This document shows positions 40,428-48,287 of a DNA stretch of 64,000 nt, piece after piece. A model generated the notes under the pieces. It saw only the letters and a program-made list of their open reading frames with translations. It was not told the DNA's origin and did no database searches. Position numbers and translations under genes: made by a program. Origin of the DNA: an uncultured Dehalococcoidia bacterium (GTDB lineage Bacteria > Chloroflexota > Dehalococcoidia > Lucifugimonadales > UBA3495); assembly GCA_958296225.1 (NCBI GenBank), contig OY282456.1, positions 2,955,328-3,019,327 of the forward strand. Reading direction: 5' to 3'. The first letter of the stretch is position 1, and each line of letters begins with the position of its first letter.

Positions 40428-41309
40428 ATGGTTATCGCCGGCTCGCCAGCTGAAGTGACTGCCCTGGAAGATTTCCGGGCCGAACTGGACCGGATTATCG
40501 CCGGCGCTCCCGTGGCGCCGGCGCCGGCAGCCTCGGCCCCGGCAGCCTCGTCCAATGATTGCGCTGCCACCGCGCCGGCGCCGCCGCAATCCCGTCGCCC
40601 GGCGGCGGTCGCTTACCAACCCACCATCAGCCAGCTGCCGGCCAGCGAGCGGCCACGGGAACGCCTGCGGGAGCATGGCCCCCGCTACCTGAATAATGCC
40701 GAACTGGTTGCCATCCTGCTGCGAACCGGAACCAGGGGCGAAAACGCCGTCAACCTGGCCCAGCGTATCATCGCGGAGTTTGAGGGGCTGGCCGGTTTGG
40801 CCAGGGCCGGGTATGGAGAATTGTGCCGGCAACACGGGGTGAGAGACGCCAAGACTTCCATGATTATGGCCGCGCTGGAGCTGGGCCGCCGGATTGCGTC
40901 GCTGGCCCCGGAAGAGCGGGCGCAAATTTCCTGCCCGCAGGATGCCGCCAATCTGGTTTTGTCGGAAATGTCGCTGCTGGCGCAGGAAAATCTGGTTGTC
41001 CTGCTATTGAACACCCGCAACCAGGTGGTGGGCAAACGCACTATTTACATCGGCACGGTGAACAGCAGCGCGGTGCGCCCCGCCGAAGTGCTGCGCCCGG
41101 CCATCCGCGAAAATGCTCCGTCCATCATCGTCGTGCATAACCACCCGTCGGGCGACCCAACGCCCAGCCCGGAAGACGTGTCCGTAACCCGCGACCTGGC
41201 TGCCGCCGGCAAACTGATGGACATTGAACTGCTGGACCACCTGGTTATCGGCCAGGGCGGCCGGTTCGCCAGCCTGAAAGAAAAAAAGCTCGGCTTCGAC
41301 CGAACCTGA
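40428..41309 (+). CDS. radC: RadC family JAB-domain protein
   Basis: ERPRERL, ELVAILLRTG, HNHPSGDPTPSPED, LLDHLVIG; start uncertain. Confidence 0.9.
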   Translation: MVIAGSPAEVTALEDFRAELDRIIAGAPVAPAPAASAPAASSNDCAATAPAPPQSRRPAAVAYQPTISQLPASERPRERLREHGPRYLNNAELVAILLRTGTRGENAVNLAQRIIAEFEGLAGLARAGYGELCRQHGVRDAKTSMIMAALELGRRIASLAPEERAQISCPQDAANLVLSEMSLLAQENLVVLLLNTRNQVVGKRTIYIGTVNSSAVRPAEVLRPAIRENAPSIIVVHNHPSGDPTPSPEDVSVTRDLAAAGKLMDIELLDHLVIGQGGRFASLKEKKLGFDRT

Positions 41310-41328: not shown

Positions 41329-41661
41329 ATGAGCGATTATTTTCTGCGCCCGGACTGCCGGGGCTACAAGGAACTGGCGGAGGGCGCCCGCACCCGGACT
41401 TTCTGGGGCGCGCAGATGCTGTTCTCTCTGGTGGAAGTGGACGCCGGCGCTACGGTGCCGTTGCACACCCACCCCCACGAGCAGGGCGGCATCATTGTTG
41501 AAGGCGAGCTGGAAATGGGGATTGGCGGCGAAGTTCGCGTCCTGCAACCCGGCGATATGTACATCATCCCCGGCGACGTGGAGCATTACGCCAAAGGACA
41601 GGACACCAAAGCCGTCGCCCTGGATATATTCAGTCCGGTGCGGGAAGAGTTCCAATACTAG
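41329..41661 (+). CDS. cupin domain protein
   Basis: HTHPHEQ...PGDVEH, DIFSPVRE. Confidence 0.9.
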   Translation: MSDYFLRPDCRGYKELAEGARTRTFWGAQMLFSLVEVDAGATVPLHTHPHEQGGIIVEGELEMGIGGEVRVLQPGDMYIIPGDVEHYAKGQDTKAVALDIFSPVREEFQY

Positions 41662-42482
41662 GCGCGGTCGCCGAAATAGTCGGCCACCGCCAGCACCAGA
41701 TTGCCCATGTGCGGGTGGGCCGGCTCAACGTCCACGCCGATGCCGTATTCGCGCAGCTGGCGCGTGCAGACCGGCCCCACAGAGGCGACGGCCACCGGCC
41801 CGGCCAGGCTGCGGCGCAAGGATTCCGCCCGCCCGGCGCCGGCGGCAATTGCGAGCAGGTTAGGCACCTGGGGCCGGCTGGTAAAGGCCAGAGCGTCAAC
41901 CGCGCCCCGTTCCATCCGGTCAATCAGTTCCAGGACGGGGCCGGTATCGTCCGGCAGTCCCCAGTCATACAGCGTCAGTTCCCGGTAGATTGCGCCCTGC
42001 TCACGCAAGTAGGCGGGGAGTTCCGAATCCGGGCCGCCATACCGCTGAAAGACGACCTGTTGGCCACGCAGGGGCAGGTCGGACATAGCGGCGGTCAAAT
42101 CCGACGACGTATAAGGCTCCGGCGGCATAATGTCAATGGGGATTTGGTGGCGGCGCAGTATTCGCCCCGGCTTGGGGCTGCGGGCGACGACGGTGATTGC
42201 ACGCAGCGCCGCCTCAAACTCGGCTTGCCGCCCCATAACGTCGGCAATGCCCATCATGGCGTTGGCGCCCACGCCGGTGAGAAAGATGGCGGTATCGACC
42301 CGGCCCGCGCAGATGTCAATGATAGCCTGCTGAACTTCGGGGCTGTCCGTCAGGTAGTTTTCCTGCAAGACCGGAGCGGCGTAAGGCACGCCGCCATGCC
42401 GCCGGATGAGGCCGGCCATGGCGTCGGGCATTCGCGCTTCGACGAAGGCCAGCACTCGCCCGTTCAGGGATGTTGCAGCCAT
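41658..42482 (-). CDS. hemD: uroporphyrinogen-III synthase
   Basis: IFLTGVG, FTSRPQV, ASVGPVC motifs; directly downstream of a siroheme enzyme. Confidence 0.8.
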   Translation of the reverse strand: MAATSLNGRVLAFVEARMPDAMAGLIRRHGGVPYAAPVLQENYLTDSPEVQQAIIDICAGRVDTAIFLTGVGANAMMGIADVMGRQAEFEAALRAITVVARSPKPGRILRRHQIPIDIMPPEPYTSSDLTAAMSDLPLRGQQVVFQRYGGPDSELPAYLREQGAIYRELTLYDWGLPDDTGPVLELIDRMERGAVDALAFTSRPQVPNLLAIAAGAGRAESLRRSLAGPVAVASVGPVCTRQLREYGIGVDVEPAHPHMGNLVLAVADYFGDRA

Positions 42483-42504: not shown

Positions 42505-44340
42505 CTAGACGGCGCACTCGCCTTCGCCGCGTTCCAGCACGTACTGGTTGGTGCGTTCCCAGTCGAAGTACATTTCGCCGCCGCCCTCGGCTTCGTGTCC
42601 TACTTCCTGCGCGCGCGCGGCCACCGCGGTCATCTGCTCCAAACCCACCCGGTCCAGGAAGTCGTTGAACCGCTCGGAGTCGCCGGCGCGGTGGTCCTTG
42701 TAGTAGCTGACGATGTCTTTCAACACCGACGGCACCAGCTTGGCCGGCACTTTAACCCGGGGCACGCGGGTTCCGATGCGGGAATCCTCCACCAGGTTGT
42801 CGCCGTAGTTGCCGCCCAGGAACAGCTCGTAGGATGGAATCTGCTGCCCGTCCGTGCCCTTGACCGCCCCGCCGTGGAATCCGATGTTGGCGATGTGGTG
42901 CAGGCCGCACCCGTTGGGGCAGCCGCTCATCTTGATGCGGATGTCCTGCACGCCGGCGTCGTCGGCCAGGCCGTTCCAGTCCGCAATCTCGGTGCGGAGG
43001 GCTTTGGCCAGGCCCATTGACGCGGTGATGCCGAGTTTGCAGCTGTCGGTGCCGGGGCAGGAAACGATGTTGCTGATGTGGTTGTGGCCGGCCTCGCCCA
43101 ACTCCAGCGCGGTCAAGGCTTCCCAAACGTCGCGCAGGTGGCCGGTGGGCACCCAGCGCAGGACGATGTTCTGCTCCTGGGTAGTGCGCGCCTTGCCGCC
43201 GGTGTAGCGGCGGACGATATTCGCCAGGCCGTGGAACTGGGCGGAGGTGAGGTCGCCCCGCACCGTCTTGACGTACACCACATGGTAGCCTTCCTGGCGC
43301 TGCGCCGCCACGTTGCTGTCCAGCCAGCTCCGGTATTCCGGGCTGCCGTCGTCGCCGTTGCCGGAGGCCGGCTGCGGCGGTGGGGTTTCGCGCTGGATTT
43401 CCTCGGCGGTCATCAGCGGCCGGTAGTCGATGGGGCCGATGTTGGCCAGCTCGGCGTCCACCAGGTCGCGGAATTCGTCCAGGCCAATCTTGTCAATCAG
43501 CACCTTGAGGCGGGCCATCATACGGTTCTTGCGGAGGATGTCGGCGTTGTTGAATACCGTCCATATCGCCAGGGCCACCCGGAGGTAGTCATCCTCGGAT
43601 ACCCACTCGTACAGGGGTTTGGCCAGCCGGGGCATAATGGACGTTCCGCCGCCGCAATAGACTTTGAAGCCTTTGCGCTGCGCGCCGTCCACCTCTTTAT
43701 ACTGGGCTACGTAGGTCAAATCCTGGACGGCGGCGGCCACTTCGTCCCGCCGGTCGTTGCCGGTGAAGGCGGACTTGAACTTGCGGGGGAAGTTTTGCGT
43801 GATGGGATGGCGCACGCCAAAGCGCACGTAGGCGGTGAGATAGGGCGTGGGGTCGAACACTTCCTCCGGGCTGACCCCGGCGGTGGCCGGGCCGACCACG
43901 TTGCGCACGGTGTTGCCGCAAGCCTCGCGAGTGGACAGGCCCACCGCGCCCAGGAGTCGCAGAACTTCGGAGGTTTGTTCCAGCGGGATGTGGTGCAGCT
44001 GGATGTTTTCCCGGGTGGTGATGTGCCCCTTCTGCAAGGGGGCGTAGCGTTCCGCAACGTCGCCGAAGCAGTCCAGCATAGCTGCGGACACGATGCCGCC
44101 GGGGAGTTTGACGCGAATCATCTGCACGTCGGCCTGACGCTGCCCGTACACGCCCTGGCGCAGGCGAAAGGGGGTGAACACGGTGTTGTCCAGGTCTCCG
44201 GTTCGGAAGCGGTCAACCTCGGCGTCAAAGCGCCGGATTTCATCCTCCATAAAAGGGATGATGGCGGGCGATTCCGGCGCCAGTCGCATACTGGATTCAT
44301 GGATTGCGTTCTGGTCGGCAGCTTGAATTTGGCTGGTCAA
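42505..44340 (-). CDS. siroheme/4Fe-4S sulfite (or nitrite) reductase
   Basis: GVYGQRQ, HITTRENIQLH, PRKFK, SCPG..SC, SGCPNGC; TTG start with GGAGG RBS. Confidence 0.9.
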   Translation of the reverse strand: MTSQIQAADQNAIHESSMRLAPESPAIIPFMEDEIRRFDAEVDRFRTGDLDNTVFTPFRLRQGVYGQRQADVQMIRVKLPGGIVSAAMLDCFGDVAERYAPLQKGHITTRENIQLHHIPLEQTSEVLRLLGAVGLSTREACGNTVRNVVGPATAGVSPEEVFDPTPYLTAYVRFGVRHPITQNFPRKFKSAFTGNDRRDEVAAAVQDLTYVAQYKEVDGAQRKGFKVYCGGGTSIMPRLAKPLYEWVSEDDYLRVALAIWTVFNNADILRKNRMMARLKVLIDKIGLDEFRDLVDAELANIGPIDYRPLMTAEEIQRETPPPQPASGNGDDGSPEYRSWLDSNVAAQRQEGYHVVYVKTVRGDLTSAQFHGLANIVRRYTGGKARTTQEQNIVLRWVPTGHLRDVWEALTALELGEAGHNHISNIVSCPGTDSCKLGITASMGLAKALRTEIADWNGLADDAGVQDIRIKMSGCPNGCGLHHIANIGFHGGAVKGTDGQQIPSYELFLGGNYGDNLVEDSRIGTRVPRVKVPAKLVPSVLKDIVSYYKDHRAGDSERFNDFLDRVGLEQMTAVAARAQEVGHEAEGGGEMYFDWERTNQYVLERGEGECAV

Positions 44341-44363
44341 GGTGTCCTCCTCCGGATGCGGGC

Positions 44364-44403
44364 AAAAGAAGGCCCACCGTGCCGTTTGGCAAAACCGGTG
44401 GGC
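44364..44403 (-). terminator. attenuator terminator in the sulfite reductase leader
   Basis: GCCCACCG/CGGTGGGC stem with inner TGCC/GGCA, followed by TTCTTTT. Confidence 0.7.
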
Positions 44404-44430
44404 GCAGGTGGAACCTGTTTTTAGGCCAAG

Positions 44431-44505
44431 TTAGGTTTGCCCTGCCCCCGATGTGGGCGGACAGGAGCAAGCGCAAAGGCAGTTCGTTTTGCAGGTACTA
44501 TGCAT
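44431..44505 (-). CDS. Cys-rich leader peptide MHSTCKTNCLCACSCPPTSGAGQT
   Basis: 5 Cys codons in the first 15; ATG 8 nt after the -10 box. Confidence 0.7.
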   Translation of the reverse strand: MHSTCKTNCLCACSCPPTSGAGQT

Positions 44506-44513
44506 TTGCGAAA

Positions 44514-44542
44514 ACTATACAATGGAGGTCGGGAATTGTCAA
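44514..44542 (-). promoter_or_regulatory. sigma70 promoter of the leader/sulfite reductase/hemD transcript
   Basis: TTGACA-N17-TATAGT. Confidence 0.8.
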
Positions 44543-44573
44543 CCGGGAACCGGGCGGCCGCGGACCGCCGGTT

Positions 44574-45254
44574 TCAGCGCAAAGAACGCTCCGATTTGAG
44601 GTCTCCGGTGCCGATGGTGCGCCCCGAAATCAGCCACAGCACCCGCTCGGAGATGTTGGTGGCCCGGTCGGCGATGCGCTCCAAATCGTGCGCCACCCAG
44701 AGGAGGTAGGTGGCCTGTTCGATGTTGCGGGGGTCTTGCAGCATATAGGTCAGCAGTTCCCGGTAAATCTGATTGTACAGGTCGTCAACGGCGTCATCGT
44801 CCTGGCAAATCTTGCGCGCCAGCCACTCGTCCCGGTTGGCGTAGGCTTGCAGGCTTTCGTTGAGCATTTGCAGGGCGAGTTCCGCCATCCGGGGAATGTC
44901 AATCAGCGGTTTCAGCAATGGCTGGTCGCCAATTCGCAGGCAGATTTTGGCGATGCCCTCGGCGTAGTCCCCCATCCGTTCCAGCTCGACGCCGATGTGG
45001 ACGATGGACATAACCGTGCGCAAGTCGCCGGCGGCGGGCTGTTGGGTCGCCAGCAGGCCCACGCATTTGTTTTCCAGCGTGTCTTGCAGCTGGTCGATAT
45101 GGTCGTCGTCAGCGATGACTTGCCGGGCCAGGGCGGCGTTCCGGGTTTCCAGAGCCCGGAGGGCGCGTTGGGTGGATTGCTCCACCAGTCGCCCCATTTC
45201 AACCAGGCCCTTTTGCAGGGCTGCCAGGTCGCGATTGTAGTCAGAGCGCAGCAT
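44574..45254 (-). CDS. phoU: phosphate signalling protein PhoU
   Basis: QQP.A.DLR, ELERMGD, DDAVDDLY, LERIADRATNI. Confidence 0.95.
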   Translation of the reverse strand: MLRSDYNRDLAALQKGLVEMGRLVEQSTQRALRALETRNAALARQVIADDDHIDQLQDTLENKCVGLLATQQPAAGDLRTVMSIVHIGVELERMGDYAEGIAKICLRIGDQPLLKPLIDIPRMAELALQMLNESLQAYANRDEWLARKICQDDDAVDDLYNQIYRELLTYMLQDPRNIEQATYLLWVAHDLERIADRATNISERVLWLISGRTIGTGDLKSERSLR

Positions 45255-46083: not shown

Positions 46084-46986
46084 TTACCCCCGATGCCGGT
46101 TTTGCAGATGATTCCGCAGGAGTATCGCAAAGGCGTTCAGCCCCAGCAGCAGGGCCAGCAGCACGATGATGCCGGCGGCGGCCAGCTGGTGGAATTCTGC
46201 CTGCGGTTTGGAAATCCAGACGTAAATCTGGATGGGCAGCACGGTAAAACGGTCCAGCGGCGAGGTGGGCGCAAATGGCACGAAGGACAGCGCGCCCATG
46301 ATTACCAGCGGGGCGGCCTCGCCCATGGCCCGGCTCACCGCCAGAATGATGCCCGTCAGAATGCCGGGCAGGGCCTGGGGCAGCACCAGCCGCCAGACTA
46401 CCTGCCAACGGGTGGCGCCGAGAGCGAAACCGCCCTCTCTGATTGAGGAAGGAACGGCGCGGATGGCTTCTTCGGAGGACACGATTACAACGGGCATAAT
46501 CAGCAAGGCCAGCGTCAGCCCGGCGGCCAGCGTGCTTTTGCCCAACGCGAACAACGCCACGAAAACGCTCAACCCCAGGATACCGTACACGATGGACGGC
46601 ACGGCGGCCAGGTTCTGAATGTTGGTTTGAATCAGTTCGTTGAGACGGGTTTTAGCGGCGTATTCCTCCAGGTAGATGGCGGTGGACACTCCCACCGTGA
46701 ACGAAATGAAGATGCAGATTGCCATTACCCAAAGCGTCCCCACAATCGCCGGGAACAGCCCGGAAGATACCGCTTTGCTCGAGGGCGCGTCGCTCAACAG
46801 CGTCTTGATTGACGCCCCCTCCAGATTAATCCAGCCCCAGGCTTCGGTGGCGATGCCGTAGAGCAGGGCGGCCAGCAGCGCCAGAACCAGGCCGATGGCG
46901 ACGACGCAAACCGCCTGGAAGATCCGGGCGCCGCGCCGGCGCCGCGTCAGGCGCCGCTGGTAGGCCGATAAGGTTTGCCGGGCCAT
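46084..46986 (-). CDS. pstA: phosphate ABC transporter permease PstA
   Basis: LAAVPSIVYG, EEAIRAVP, RAMGEAAP. Confidence 0.95.
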   Translation of the reverse strand: MARQTLSAYQRRLTRRRRGARIFQAVCVVAIGLVLALLAALLYGIATEAWGWINLEGASIKTLLSDAPSSKAVSSGLFPAIVGTLWVMAICIFISFTVGVSTAIYLEEYAAKTRLNELIQTNIQNLAAVPSIVYGILGLSVFVALFALGKSTLAAGLTLALLIMPVVIVSSEEAIRAVPSSIREGGFALGATRWQVVWRLVLPQALPGILTGIILAVSRAMGEAAPLVIMGALSFVPFAPTSPLDRFTVLPIQIYVWISKPQAEFHQLAAAGIIVLLALLLGLNAFAILLRNHLQNRHRG

Positions 46987-48287
46987 TATTCGTACACCTC
47001 CCGGAACCTGGCTACTACCGCCTGGCTCACCAGGTTCATCAGCAGCGTGATGATAAACAGCGTGATACCGACGGCGAACAGCGCCTGAAACTGGGCGGTG
47101 CCGGGTATGGCGTTGTCGCTGAAGTTGGTGGCGGCCATGAACCCGGTCATGGTATTGACCGGCTCCAGCGGGTTGAAGGTAAGCCGGTCGTTTTGCCCGG
47201 CGGCGATGAACACAATCATCGTTTCGCCCACGGCGCGGGACATTGCCAGTATGAACGCCCCCACGATGCCGGAGAGGGCCGCCGGGACTACCACTTTGGC
47301 GGCGACTTCCACCCTGGTCGCCCCCAGAGCGTAGGCACCTTCCCGGAGGGAGGAGGGCACGGCCCGCAGCGCGTCCTCGCTCAGGCTGGACACCATGGGC
47401 AGAATCATCACGCCCATTACAATAGCGGCGGCCAGGGCGTTGAAGATGCCCACGTCATCGCTGAACAGCCGCAGCGCCGGCGTAATAAAGAACAGGGCGA
47501 AGAACCCGTACACCACCGTGGGTATTCCCGCCAGCACCTCCAGGACGGGCTTGACGATAGCCCGCATCCGGGGAGGCGCGTATTCGCTAAGGTAAATAGC
47601 GCTCAACAGGCCCAGCGGCGCCGCGATGAACATTGCCAGCGCCGCAATCATCATCGTGCCTACCAGCAGCGGCCAGATGCCATAGGAGCGCGGCACCAGC
47701 AGCGTGCGCCATTTGGTGTCGGTGAAATAGCGATGCCACTTTACCGATTCGGGAACCGCAAACGAATCCGTTTCCAACACGGCGTCATCAAAGGGGCCGC
47801 CCACCGTAGCGATGCCGACCTTGTAAGAGCGGCCCGGCGCAGCGTTGGCGATAACGCAAGAGGTACGTTCCGGGGCCAGGTTCTGACAATCGGTCAGGTC
47901 AGCGCCCAGGCGGGGCCGTATTGCGACGTCGTAGCCGGTGAAAGGCGCGCCGCCGGCCGGCGGCGACCAGCTGACGTAAATCAGCGAGTCGGTAGTGGCC
48001 CGCACCGATACCTGCGCTATGGTGCCGGGGGCCGCCGTCTCGCCGGTGGCCGTCCGCGCGACCGGTTTCGTTTCGTAAAAATCGGCAGTGAAAAAGCGCA
48101 CGCCCTCGAACAGCAAAACGGATACGATGCCAACGGTGGTGAGCAGGGAGACGGTTGCCAAAAGAAAAAGCGCCACTCTGACAATTTTTTCAAAGCGGCG
48201 CTTGGAGCCGGTGGCTGTGATGTCGTAACCGGCAGCGGTGGCTTGGCCAACTGCCGGTTTACCGCCGAGGATTTTGTCGAAAAGCAC
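46986..48287 (-). CDS. pstC: phosphate ABC transporter permease PstC with inserted FN3-like domain
   Basis: LAGIPTVVYG, SEDALRAVP, RAVGETM; extra ~95-aa beta domain after TM1. Confidence 0.92.
   Translation of the reverse strand: MLFDKILGGKPAVGQATAAGYDITATGSKRRFEKIVRVALFLLATVSLLTTVGIVSVLLFEGVRFFTADFYETKPVARTATGETAAPGTIAQVSVRATTDSLIYVSWSPPAGGAPFTGYDVAIRPRLGADLTDCQNLAPERTSCVIANAAPGRSYKVGIATVGGPFDDAVLETDSFAVPESVKWHRYFTDTKWRTLLVPRSYGIWPLLVGTMMIAALAMFIAAPLGLLSAIYLSEYAPPRMRAIVKPVLEVLAGIPTVVYGFFALFFITPALRLFSDDVGIFNALAAAIVMGVMILPMVSSLSEDALRAVPSSLREGAYALGATRVEVAAKVVVPAALSGIVGAFILAMSRAVGETMIVFIAAGQNDRLTFNPLEPVNTMTGFMAATNFSDNAIPGTAQFQALFAVGITLFIITLLMNLVSQAVVARFREVYE

Follow-up and report, generated by a model that had tools for sequence, protein, structure and literature searches.

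What does a short cysteine-rich open reading frame (ORF) do between a promoter and a sulfite reductase-type gene in an uncultured Dehalococcoidia bacterium? We analyzed this leader, located on the minus strand of a 64,000-nucleotide (nt) stretch of contig OY282456.1 (positions 2,955,328 to 3,019,327, hereafter the window), starting from an original prediction, made from the letters of the window alone, that it is a cysteine-sensing attenuator. Comparison with relatives identifies the leader as a real, conserved regulatory element. We estimate a probability of about 75% that it acts as a cysteine-sensing, ribosome-mediated transcription attenuator that uses leaderless initiation and controls a sir–hemD operon, with induction when cysteine is short; the transcription start, translation of the ORF, ribosome stalling and the response to cysteine are all parts of this model that we infer from sequence. 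To our knowledge, cysteine has long been the amino acid without a classical attenuator. If the model holds, the leader would be a complete trp-style switch that begins with leaderless initiation, reads Cys codons and governs the step of cysteine synthesis that produces sulfide, and it is conserved over much of the Dehalococcoidia, including records labelled SAR202. It would also supply a regulatory argument for annotating a NirA-like enzyme as an assimilatory sulfite reductase, mark unannotated small open reading frames (sORFs) that genome pipelines should call, and provide a compact natural part (~145 nt) for studying how a leaderless ribosome couples to RNA polymerase.

Layout of a Cys-codon leader

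The elements of the leader follow one another on the minus strand in the order of transcription:

44537..44542, minus strand: −35 hexamer TTGACA (sequence and promoter search)
44514..44519, minus strand: −10 hexamer TATAGT, separated from the −35 hexamer by a 17-nt spacer and ending 8 nt before the ATG
44431..44505, minus strand: leader ORF MHSTCKTNCLCACSCPPTSGAGQT, 24 codons plus TAA (ATG 44505-03, TAA 44433-31), no Shine-Dalgarno element
44461..44493, minus strand: Cys-codon tract (TGC 44493-91, TGC 44481-79, TGC 44475-73, TGC 44469-67, TGT 44463-61)
44455..44465, minus strand: region 1, CCUGUCCGCCC, 5′ arm of hairpin P1 (the putative anti-antiterminator), containing the last Cys codon (folds and pairing in relatives)
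44441..44449, minus strand: region 2, GGGGGCAGG, 3′ arm of P1 and 5′ arm of the antiterminator (sequence, folds and covariation)
44412..44437, minus strand: inner helix of the antiterminator state, AACCU 44437-33 with AGGUU 44416-12 (constrained folds)
44400..44408, minus strand: region 3, CCUGCGCCC, 3′ arm of the antiterminator, sharing GCCC with the 5′ arm of the terminator (pairing with region 2)
44363..44403, minus strand: intrinsic terminator, GCCCACCG (44403-396), an inner GCC/GGC stem, CGGUGGGC (44379-72), then CUUCUUUUG (44371-63) (sequence and folds)
44338..44353, minus strand: ribosome-binding site GGAGGAGG (44353-46) and TTG start (44340-38) of the reductase gene, kept in the genus alignment

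Base for base, TTGACA, a 17-nt spacer, TATAGT and an ATG 8 nt later without a Shine-Dalgarno element stand as originally described, and on the same strand the Cys-rich peptide is indeed followed by a terminator hairpin and U tract ahead of the reductase ribosome-binding site. The combined −35/−10 promoter score of 11/12 is the highest of 8 promoter-like sites in 10 kb (shuffles, 2.2), and the 8 nt between the −10 hexamer and the ATG (TTTCGCAA) contain neither a GGAGG-like nor a purine-rich Shine-Dalgarno element. This promoter geometry would leave a 5′ untranslated region of about 0–2 nt, and the leader ORF is thus predicted to be leaderless or nearly so. Five of its 24 codons encode Cys, at positions 5, 9, 11, 13 and 15, in a C.C.C.C array in which no two are adjacent. 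The terminator and its U tract lie 10 nt upstream of the reductase ribosome-binding site; with a loop of more than 8 nt, the hairpin was not listed by an automated terminator scan. A search of Rfam release 15 over window positions 43800-45000 at E values up to 10 placed no family on the leader and returned two chance-level matches, both outside it.

Viewed within its own genome, this signal is weak. The DNA has a G+C content of 63.6%, at least five Cys residues occur in 204 of the genome's 41,143 ATG-started sORFs of 8–45 amino acids, and the fold of the leader reaches a z-score of only −1.83 against shuffles. Strict promoters with an ATG 6–10 nt behind them are found at only 58 sites genome-wide, 32 of which open an sORF of up to 66 amino acids, and the sir-leader sORF is the most Cys-rich of these 32, with a Cys share of 21% compared to 0.95% in the long ORFs of the genome. 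A covariance model of P1 and the terminator built from leaders of the genus (R1) matches the genome once, at the sir leader itself. The single genome alone gives hardly any case beyond chance, and the case rests on conservation in relatives.

Conservation of the reading frame and Cys codons within the genus

Orthologs of the reductase occur in all 54 species genomes of the genus, with the gene of one (G046) cut by the end of a contig, and all 53 loci with upstream DNA (25 + 28) carry the promoter and a Cys-rich sORF of 22–29 codons with 3–6 Cys. The TTGACA hexamer is invariant across these 53 leaders. We aligned 52 of them (alignment A1), omitting L043, whose GGTGG arm was missed by the search pattern although its architecture is the same. 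In all 52 aligned leaders, the ATG and the last Cys codon are separated by a multiple of three (42, 48, 51, 54 or 57 nt), and insertions and deletions of 6–15 nt leave the frame intact. Counting back from the last Cys codon, position 0 is TGT in all 52 leaders, position −2 is TGT in 49 and TGC in 3, position −4 is TGC in 44 and TGT in 5, and position −6 is TGC in 33 and TGT in 4, with 6–14 different codons at each of the interleaved positions −1, −3, −5 and −7. A frame and Cys codons that are kept while their neighbors drift indicate selection on the reading frame and the Cys codons rather than on a stretch of RNA. Frame retention and synonymous TGC/TGT exchanges, together with the excess of synonymous differences in a related leader subclass (below), are strong indirect evidence that the ORF is probably translated.

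Two side observations concern the same alignment. The two Cys codons nearest P1 are TGT in 52/52 and 49/52 leaders, although TGT accounts for just 15% of the Cys codons of this genome's long ORFs; this bias could come from the demands of region 1 pairing, or the rarer codon could be favored where cysteine is sensed. In addition, the promoter spacer and first 20 transcribed nt (TTGACAATTCCCGACC...GTATAGTTTTCGCAAATGCA.AGTA.TGCAAA; window 44506-44542, minus strand) are almost invariant across 53 species and far better conserved than the remaining leader. This conservation may reflect an operator, a hairpin at the 5′ end or constraints set by leaderless initiation. No copy of the promoter and motif was found elsewhere in the genome, where a looser 16-mer gave chance-like matches only, and no shared operator or regulon motif emerged.

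Three mutually exclusive helices

The original prediction proposed that a leader segment (44441-44449) can pair at 8 of 9 positions with 44400-44408, overlapping the 5′ arm of the terminator, as an antiterminator. This complementarity of regions 2 and 3 is present in the sequence as proposed, with one G.G mismatch. What had been missed is the competing anti-antiterminator, in which region 1, with its last Cys codon, pairs with region 2. Constrained folds of the terminated state further reveal that CAGGU pairs with ACCUG (44409-05) in place of the inner helix of the antiterminator. By analogy with the trp attenuator, the design follows a 1:2 / 2:3 / 3:4 scheme.

Within the genus, the terminated state (P1 and terminator) is 91% paired; 85% of alignment cells are paired in the region 1 helix and 97% in the terminator helix, the latter with A-U to G-C and C-G to U-A changes. 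For the antiterminator, 88.9% of cells are paired, compared to 44–64% when the partner is slid along the sequence.

Leaders outside the genus supply the variation needed to follow compensatory change. A search of 84 non-genus loci with R1 returned 23 matches at E values up to 1, one of them a spurious match inside a gene (L123:2663-2824) that is contained in the resulting alignment (A4); L123 and duplicate sequences were left out of another alignment, A3. In the non-genus alignment (23 leaders), 18 of 21 pairs of P1 and the terminator show compensatory changes, a count reached in 0 of 500 shuffles of an alignment that was fitted to that same structure; by helix, and with the same fitting, compensatory pairs number 9 of 10 in P1 and 6 of 8 in the terminator, which is 98.4% paired. 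The antiterminator, which is absent from the R1 model, is 85.5% paired in these leaders compared to 26–61% with its partner slid, and both sides have changed in five of its eight pairs compared to 1.8 expected (1/500 shuffles). Its covariation score is 0.200 against 0.132 (0/500 shuffles), with G-C to U-A swaps in L091 and L093 and G-C to A-U swaps in L092 and L095. The antiterminator of the original prediction thus shows covariation between families even though its pairs played no part in fitting the alignment.

Two further comparisons carried little information on the antiterminator. A swap test comparing duplex energies of cognate and non-cognate regions 2 and 3 gave cognate ranks that were scattered from leader to leader and is uninformative. 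RNAalifold found no consensus in a MAFFT alignment of 32 diverse region 2–3 segments because MAFFT misaligned about nine of the rows.

Cys-rich leaders across the Dehalococcoidia

Beyond the genus, an ortholog of the reductase is present in 12 of 16 genomes from other families of the same order. Five of these loci (L027, L028, L029, L032 and L034) have TTGACA, a spacer of 16–17 nt, TAnnnT, and an ATG 8–10 nt later that opens a 12–16-codon ORF ending in a Cys cluster (MRKSMLVCCYCCPLT, MLSIVDPCRCCC, MAHTAFHQVCACRCGP, MLNCTLSTRCACMCWP and MSTRICTCSCMK), followed by a GC-rich hairpin and U tract. Two others are doubtful (L030, L037), four are without the leader (L026, L031, L033, L036) and one is cut (L035).

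We assembled a wider set from the best 80 of 588 confirmed reductase relatives in species-representative genomes. By their titles, 71 of these are metagenome-assembled genomes of Chloroflexota, Dehalococcoidia or SAR202, about eight of them from the window genus, and the remaining nine comprise six Solirubrobacterales, one Nitrospinota, one Binatia and one 'uncultured bacterium'. Each locus was examined for an sORF of 8–40 codons with at least three Cys within 8 residues in the 420 nt upstream of the gene, and for a promoter scoring at least 9/12 placed 5–11 nt before the start. Such a Cys-rich sORF precedes the reductase at 36 of the 80 loci and is promoter-linked at 34 of these, compared to control counts of 4 on the antisense strand and 3 inside the gene, neither with a promoter-linked case. 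When the promoter-linked test is run for each residue in turn, Cys is flagged at 34 loci, Thr at 7, Ile and Leu at 4 each and every other residue at no more than 2. The eight non-Chloroflexota loci of the set yielded no Cys-rich sORF in this test. Kinship among these loci means that the counts do not represent independent events. In the 36 Cys-rich leaders, TTGACA is present in 31, the gap from −10 to start is 6–10 nt and mostly 8, and a hairpin with a U tract occurs in 34, beginning 25–53 nt past the stop codon in 33. Conservation of the Cys sORF and hairpin at orthologs was the check that the original prediction had asked for, and it came out in its favor both here and at the 53 loci of the genus. 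With a relaxed Cys threshold, 16 further promoter-linked sORFs of 14–17 codons appear, with one to three Cys near the end; ten of them are 2-Cys leaders (L105, L110, L114, L117-L119, L124, L132, L137 and L144), and terminators were inspected for the six others. A search of 150 other genomes of the class with R1 gave no match; it covered 21 first-look candidates per genome under strict filters, with few close relatives, and is uninformative on distribution.

The recurrence of the terminator bears on whether the leader acts on transcription at all. Its output could instead be translational, as in mycobacteria, with leader RNA hiding the reductase ribosome-binding site and the hairpin serving only to terminate the upstream pst–phoU operon, which we regard as highly unlikely. 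The stop codon of phoU is only ~30 nt upstream of the promoter, yet the hairpin lies downstream of both the promoter and the sORF, is kept at loci where the upstream DNA does not align with the window (L019, L021, L023), and accompanies 34 of the 36 Cys-rich leaders in the wider set. When the leader is folded to minimum free energy, the pyrimidine-rich terminator tail CCUUCUUUU does pair with the ribosome-binding site GGAGGAGG (window 44346-44371, minus strand), although through a U tract pairing that depends on G.U pairs; the Cys tract itself has region 2, not the ribosome-binding site, as its pairing partner, and it is the helix competing with the terminator that covaries. Polycysteine leaderless sORFs of mycobacteria act by such a translational route (10.1101/834739). 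Under the attenuation model, the pairing of CCUUCUUUU with GGAGGAGG could add a translational layer in read-through transcripts.

The arrangement of the Cys codons differs by clade, from C.C.C.C to CCCC and CC.C.C, and some leaders contain CC or CCC. This variable spacing fits codon reading and not a periodic protein-binding site. The distinction matters because a cysteine-responsive RNA-binding protein or ligand, as in a riboswitch or a TRAP/HutP-like system, could in principle control the terminator and make the ORF a by-product of UGY repeats. The UGY triplets at 3-nt spacing in the window genus resemble the repeated triplet sites of TRAP and HutP, and the almost invariant promoter and first 20 nt of the genus would suit such a factor, although this motif recurs nowhere else in the genome and no Rfam family falls on the leader. 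Against the spacing differences between clades, the frame kept through all indels in 52/52 leaders and an ATG at fixed distance from the −10 hexamer, we consider this reading very improbable.

Outside the Cys cluster, the leader peptides are almost wholly different across clades. It is therefore a poor prospect, in our view scarcely plausible, that the sORF encodes a functional Cys-rich micropeptide (metal-binding, Fe-S or redox) co-expressed with sir while the hairpin acts as a partial, constitutive terminator. In its favor, the Cys residues keep a conserved pattern and Sir enzymes need [4Fe-4S] and siroheme cofactors, but the products are only 12–29 amino acids long without conserved non-Cys sequence across clades, and the 3′ end of the ORF is built into the covarying RNA switch. 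In addition, in most clades the stop codon sits in the P1 loop 11–14 nt from the last Cys codon, a placement that is meaningful only if the ribosome is the sensor.

Proposed mechanism of attenuation

In the attenuation model, transcription would begin at the AUG of the 24-codon leader ORF or 1–2 nt before it, and a ribosome would load without a Shine-Dalgarno element and trail the polymerase. When cysteine is plentiful, the ribosome would reach the stop codon and cover region 2, or would depart and let region 1 (CCUGUCCGCCC) pair with region 2 (GGGGGCAGG). In either case region 3 would stay free, and the terminator GCCCACCG...CGGUGGGC with its U tract would form and stop transcription before the reductase gene. 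When Cys-tRNA is scarce, the ribosome would stall on the last Cys codons and cover region 1, and region 2, 14 nt downstream and outside the stalled ribosome, would pair with region 3 (CCUGCGCCC) once that is made. The 2:3 helix would remove the base of the terminator stem, and polymerase would read into sir–hemD.

The spacing of these elements is consistent with such a sensor. In the window, the offset from the first base of the last Cys codon to the start of region 2 is 14 nt; the same offset applies in 20 of the 36 wider leaders, and one of 11 nt in most of the rest. An offset of 14 nt is just past the 3′ edge of a ribosome whose A site is occupied by the last Cys codon. The P1 loop contains the stop codon in most clades, directly before region 2 and 11–14 nt from the last Cys codon, and in the window genus the stop codon lies 2–8 nt past region 2. 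From these positions, a ribosome at the stop codon would cover region 2, and one stalled at the Cys codons would cover region 1 and free region 2. Consistent with this order of events, when the ribosome footprint is masked and the 3′ arm of the terminator is not yet made, the 2:3 helix folds in the window and in relatives. In ribosome-masked folds the base of the terminator is sequestered in 30 of 34 leaders, a weak test by comparison with shuffles (below).

Several observations weigh against the attenuation model. Among sequencing runs, a search returned four runs of one study, kept as contigs, and no RNA run covering this stretch. When the full terminator is present in the transcript, it is the preferred fold even if the stalled ribosome is masked (−37.9 kcal/mol), and by calculated energy (P1 −17.9, antiterminator with inner helix −21.6 and terminator −21.7 kcal/mol) the two competing states are nearly isoenergetic. 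The terminator is thus favored at equilibrium, and the antiterminator must win kinetically, by forming first. On a re-run with 33 leaders, sequestration of the terminator base was observed in 30 compared to 20.9 expected from shuffles, an excess that is only moderate because G-rich leaders pair readily with C-rich arms. Inside the genus the antiterminator shows conserved pairing without covariation, because it hardly varies there, and the U tract of the window terminator is interrupted (CUUCUUUUG). The genome is also without a recognizable adenosine 5′-phosphosulfate (APS) or 3′-phosphoadenosine 5′-phosphosulfate (PAPS) reductase to supply the enzyme with sulfite. Finally, in a related subclass the leaders carry a conserved peptide, MRFEDDLFHLC, with no more than one or two Cys codons; counting of Cys codons is therefore not the whole story in every lineage.

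A leader subclass with a conserved peptide

This subclass comprises leaders at five other Dehalococcoidia sir loci (L080:720-770, L094:717-767, L095:717-767, L096:724-774 and L099:775-822), with peptide variants MRMEDD.. and MRFPDD... Their promoter, P1 and terminator are the same as in the poly-Cys class. Across the first 11 codons, 10 pairwise comparisons contain 46 synonymous and 8 non-synonymous differences, including exchanges among the Arg codons CGC, CGT, AGA and AGG, which suggests selection on the peptide itself, possibly as an arrest peptide. A search of metagenome contigs with a degenerate MRFEDDLFHLC pattern gave one match, at the end of a contig and not usable.

The subclass raises the question of whether the window leader, too, might sense through its nascent chain. 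In the M(H/Q)S(T/N)CK start and Cys residues of the window peptide one could see a sensor in the ribosomal tunnel, arresting the ribosome possibly in response to a sulfur metabolite; we consider this unlikely. If true, arrest peptides would gain a new class, one that senses a metabolite, is coupled to an intrinsic terminator and is widespread in Dehalococcoidia/SAR202. Stated as a full alternative to tRNA-Cys supply, the nascent leader peptide would arrest the ribosome in response to, for example, free cysteine or sulfide and operate the same RNA switch, as TnaC does. Selection on MRFEDDLFHLC in a subclass with so few Cys codons argues for this idea, and the M(H/Q)S(T/N)CK N-terminus is conserved in the window genus as well. 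There, however, the first 20 nt are kept as nucleotides, even at third codon positions, and H/Q and T/N/S/K replacements occur, which points to RNA or initiation constraints and not to the peptide. Poly-Cys leaders also share no residues across clades beyond the Cys tract and the C-rich codons of region 1, and five Cys codons exceed the need of a residue-specific arrest motif. For the window leader, we judge arrest by the nascent peptide to be quite unlikely.

Comparison with known leader-dependent systems

Classical leader-peptide transcription attenuators control the trp, his, leu, thr, ilv and pheA genes of E. coli and Salmonella. The window leader shares with them mutually exclusive 1:2, 2:3 and 3:4 pairings, an intrinsic terminator before the first structural gene, regulatory codons at the start of region 1 and a stop codon near region 2. 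We thus find in one leader a Cys-enriched ORF, an intrinsic terminator, an antiterminator and an anti-antiterminator overlapping the last Cys codon. Unlike the classical systems, it is predicted to sense cysteine, has no Shine-Dalgarno element and starts 8 nt past the −10 hexamer, its host belongs to the Dehalococcoidia (Chloroflexota), and the operon that it would control encodes a sulfite reductase-type enzyme and HemD.

A parallel in translation initiation, already drawn in the original prediction, is offered by the polycysteine leaderless sORFs of mycobacteria (Ms5788A and others). According to Canestrari et al. 2020 (10.1101/834739), these sORFs relieve sequestration of a Shine-Dalgarno sequence, so that regulation is translational, and attenuation for cysteine mediated by an upstream ORF (uORF) is stated there to have been previously undescribed. 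The parallel holds for an unannotated, Cys-rich first cistron, in the window only predicted to be leaderless, of a cysteine-related operon, with stalling at Cys codons as the proposed sensor. It fails for the output: the mycobacterial sORFs work without a terminator, through a very stable duplex that masks the Shine-Dalgarno sequence of the following gene, whereas the window leader has a terminator and a covarying antiterminator. The mycobacterial Cys codons are also consecutive, in contrast to the alternating C.C.C.C of the window, which has no run of at least two, and pairing of the Cys tract with the Shine-Dalgarno sequence is replaced here by pairing of the last-Cys-codon region with region 2.

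Leaders with Cys codons have been described in two other groups. The uORFC-8-2 motif before cysS in Rhodobacterales is a predicted ribosome-mediated attenuator (PMC8632094) that, like the window leader, has two stems, a U-rich terminator and conserved Cys codons, UGC or at times UGU. It differs in preceding a cysteinyl-tRNA synthetase gene in another phylum, in having tandem Cys codons at positions 14-15 and in having no stated leaderless start. The Cys leader peptides that Seliverstov et al. 2005 (PMC1262725) reported in Actinobacteria are likewise short ORFs with Cys runs near the stop codon upstream of cysteine genes, and are without terminator hairpins, for which the authors suggested Rho; in the window leader, by contrast, the terminator is clear and conserved. 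A full-text literature search, with subscription journals and supplements outside its reach, found no description of this element for Chloroflexota or before a sulfite reductase. The novelty originally claimed for an attenuator in this phylum therefore stands within that scope but does not extend to the combination of a Cys-codon uORF with a terminator, which had been predicted at cysS of Rhodobacterales (PMC8632094).

The sir–hemD operon and sulfur metabolism

The leader precedes two genes:

42505..44340, minus strand: 611-amino-acid siroheme/[4Fe-4S] reductase of the NirA/Sir family (Pfam NIR_SIR and NIR_SIR_ferr)
41658..42482, minus strand: hemD (uroporphyrinogen-III synthase), second and last gene of the operon (Pfam HEM4, NCBIfam)

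A terminator-like site (41307-41286) and the convergent gene radC (40428-41309, plus strand) bound the operon on its downstream side. Upstream lies phoU, the end of a phosphate-transporter cluster, whose stop codon is ~30 nt before the −35 hexamer. As a side observation, a phosphate-transporter permease-like protein (BPD_transp_1; window 46986-48287, minus strand) carries an N-terminal fibronectin type III domain, an unusual fusion.

The best NCBIfam match of the reductase is 'NirA family protein', below the cut-off, and its closest solved relative is M. tuberculosis NirA (1zj8, E 3.7e-48), followed by plant nitrite reductases at ~1e-42 and, more weakly, sulfite reductase hemoproteins. The mycobacterial NirA enzyme is reported to be a sulfite reductase. 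Searches of the single-contig genome, rated 97.7% complete, gave no match to APS/PAPS reductase (PF01507, TIGR02055) and none above cut-off to cysE. The genome does contain an ATP sulfurylase gene (2357316-2358596), two APS kinase genes near 1017517 and 2396967, and a CysK/CysM-like PALP gene (1189312-1190406) adjoining a ThiF-family gene, a pair reminiscent of the mycobacterial CysO/CysM route. Organosulfonates are one guess for the source of sulfite. The original prediction took the leader as an argument that the enzyme is an assimilatory sulfite reductase. The closest solved relative agrees with this assignment, but plant nitrite reductases score nearly as well and the genome has no recognizable APS/PAPS reductase; from sequence, the assignment appears reasonable and is not settled.

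A second candidate leader and a repeated sORF in the same genome

A second leader of the leaderless type lies at positions 3094393-3094497 of the contig, plus strand (G000:C1:3094393-3094497; L068:94-198), before a 3-deoxy-D-arabino-heptulosonate 7-phosphate (DAHP) synthase ORF within L068:201-1379. It consists of TTGACA, 17 nt, TAGGAT, 9 nt and an ATG that opens the sORF MITACRQIACGYCRPFYLYAYRRPVSVNPAREAR with an FYLYAY tract, followed by a hairpin GGACUUCAGCC...GGCUGAAGUCC with UUUUU and then the DAHP synthase ribosome-binding site. This arrangement makes it a candidate Tyr/Phe-sensing attenuator. Elsewhere in the genome (G000:C1:3510144-3511501, minus strand), a 31-codon Cys-rich sORF (MTTACPS.TSQFCGCATT.TGNGRCRPTCCC) occurs in three copies ~631 nt apart, which could be a set of precursor peptides or an artefact of reading a repeated gene out of frame.

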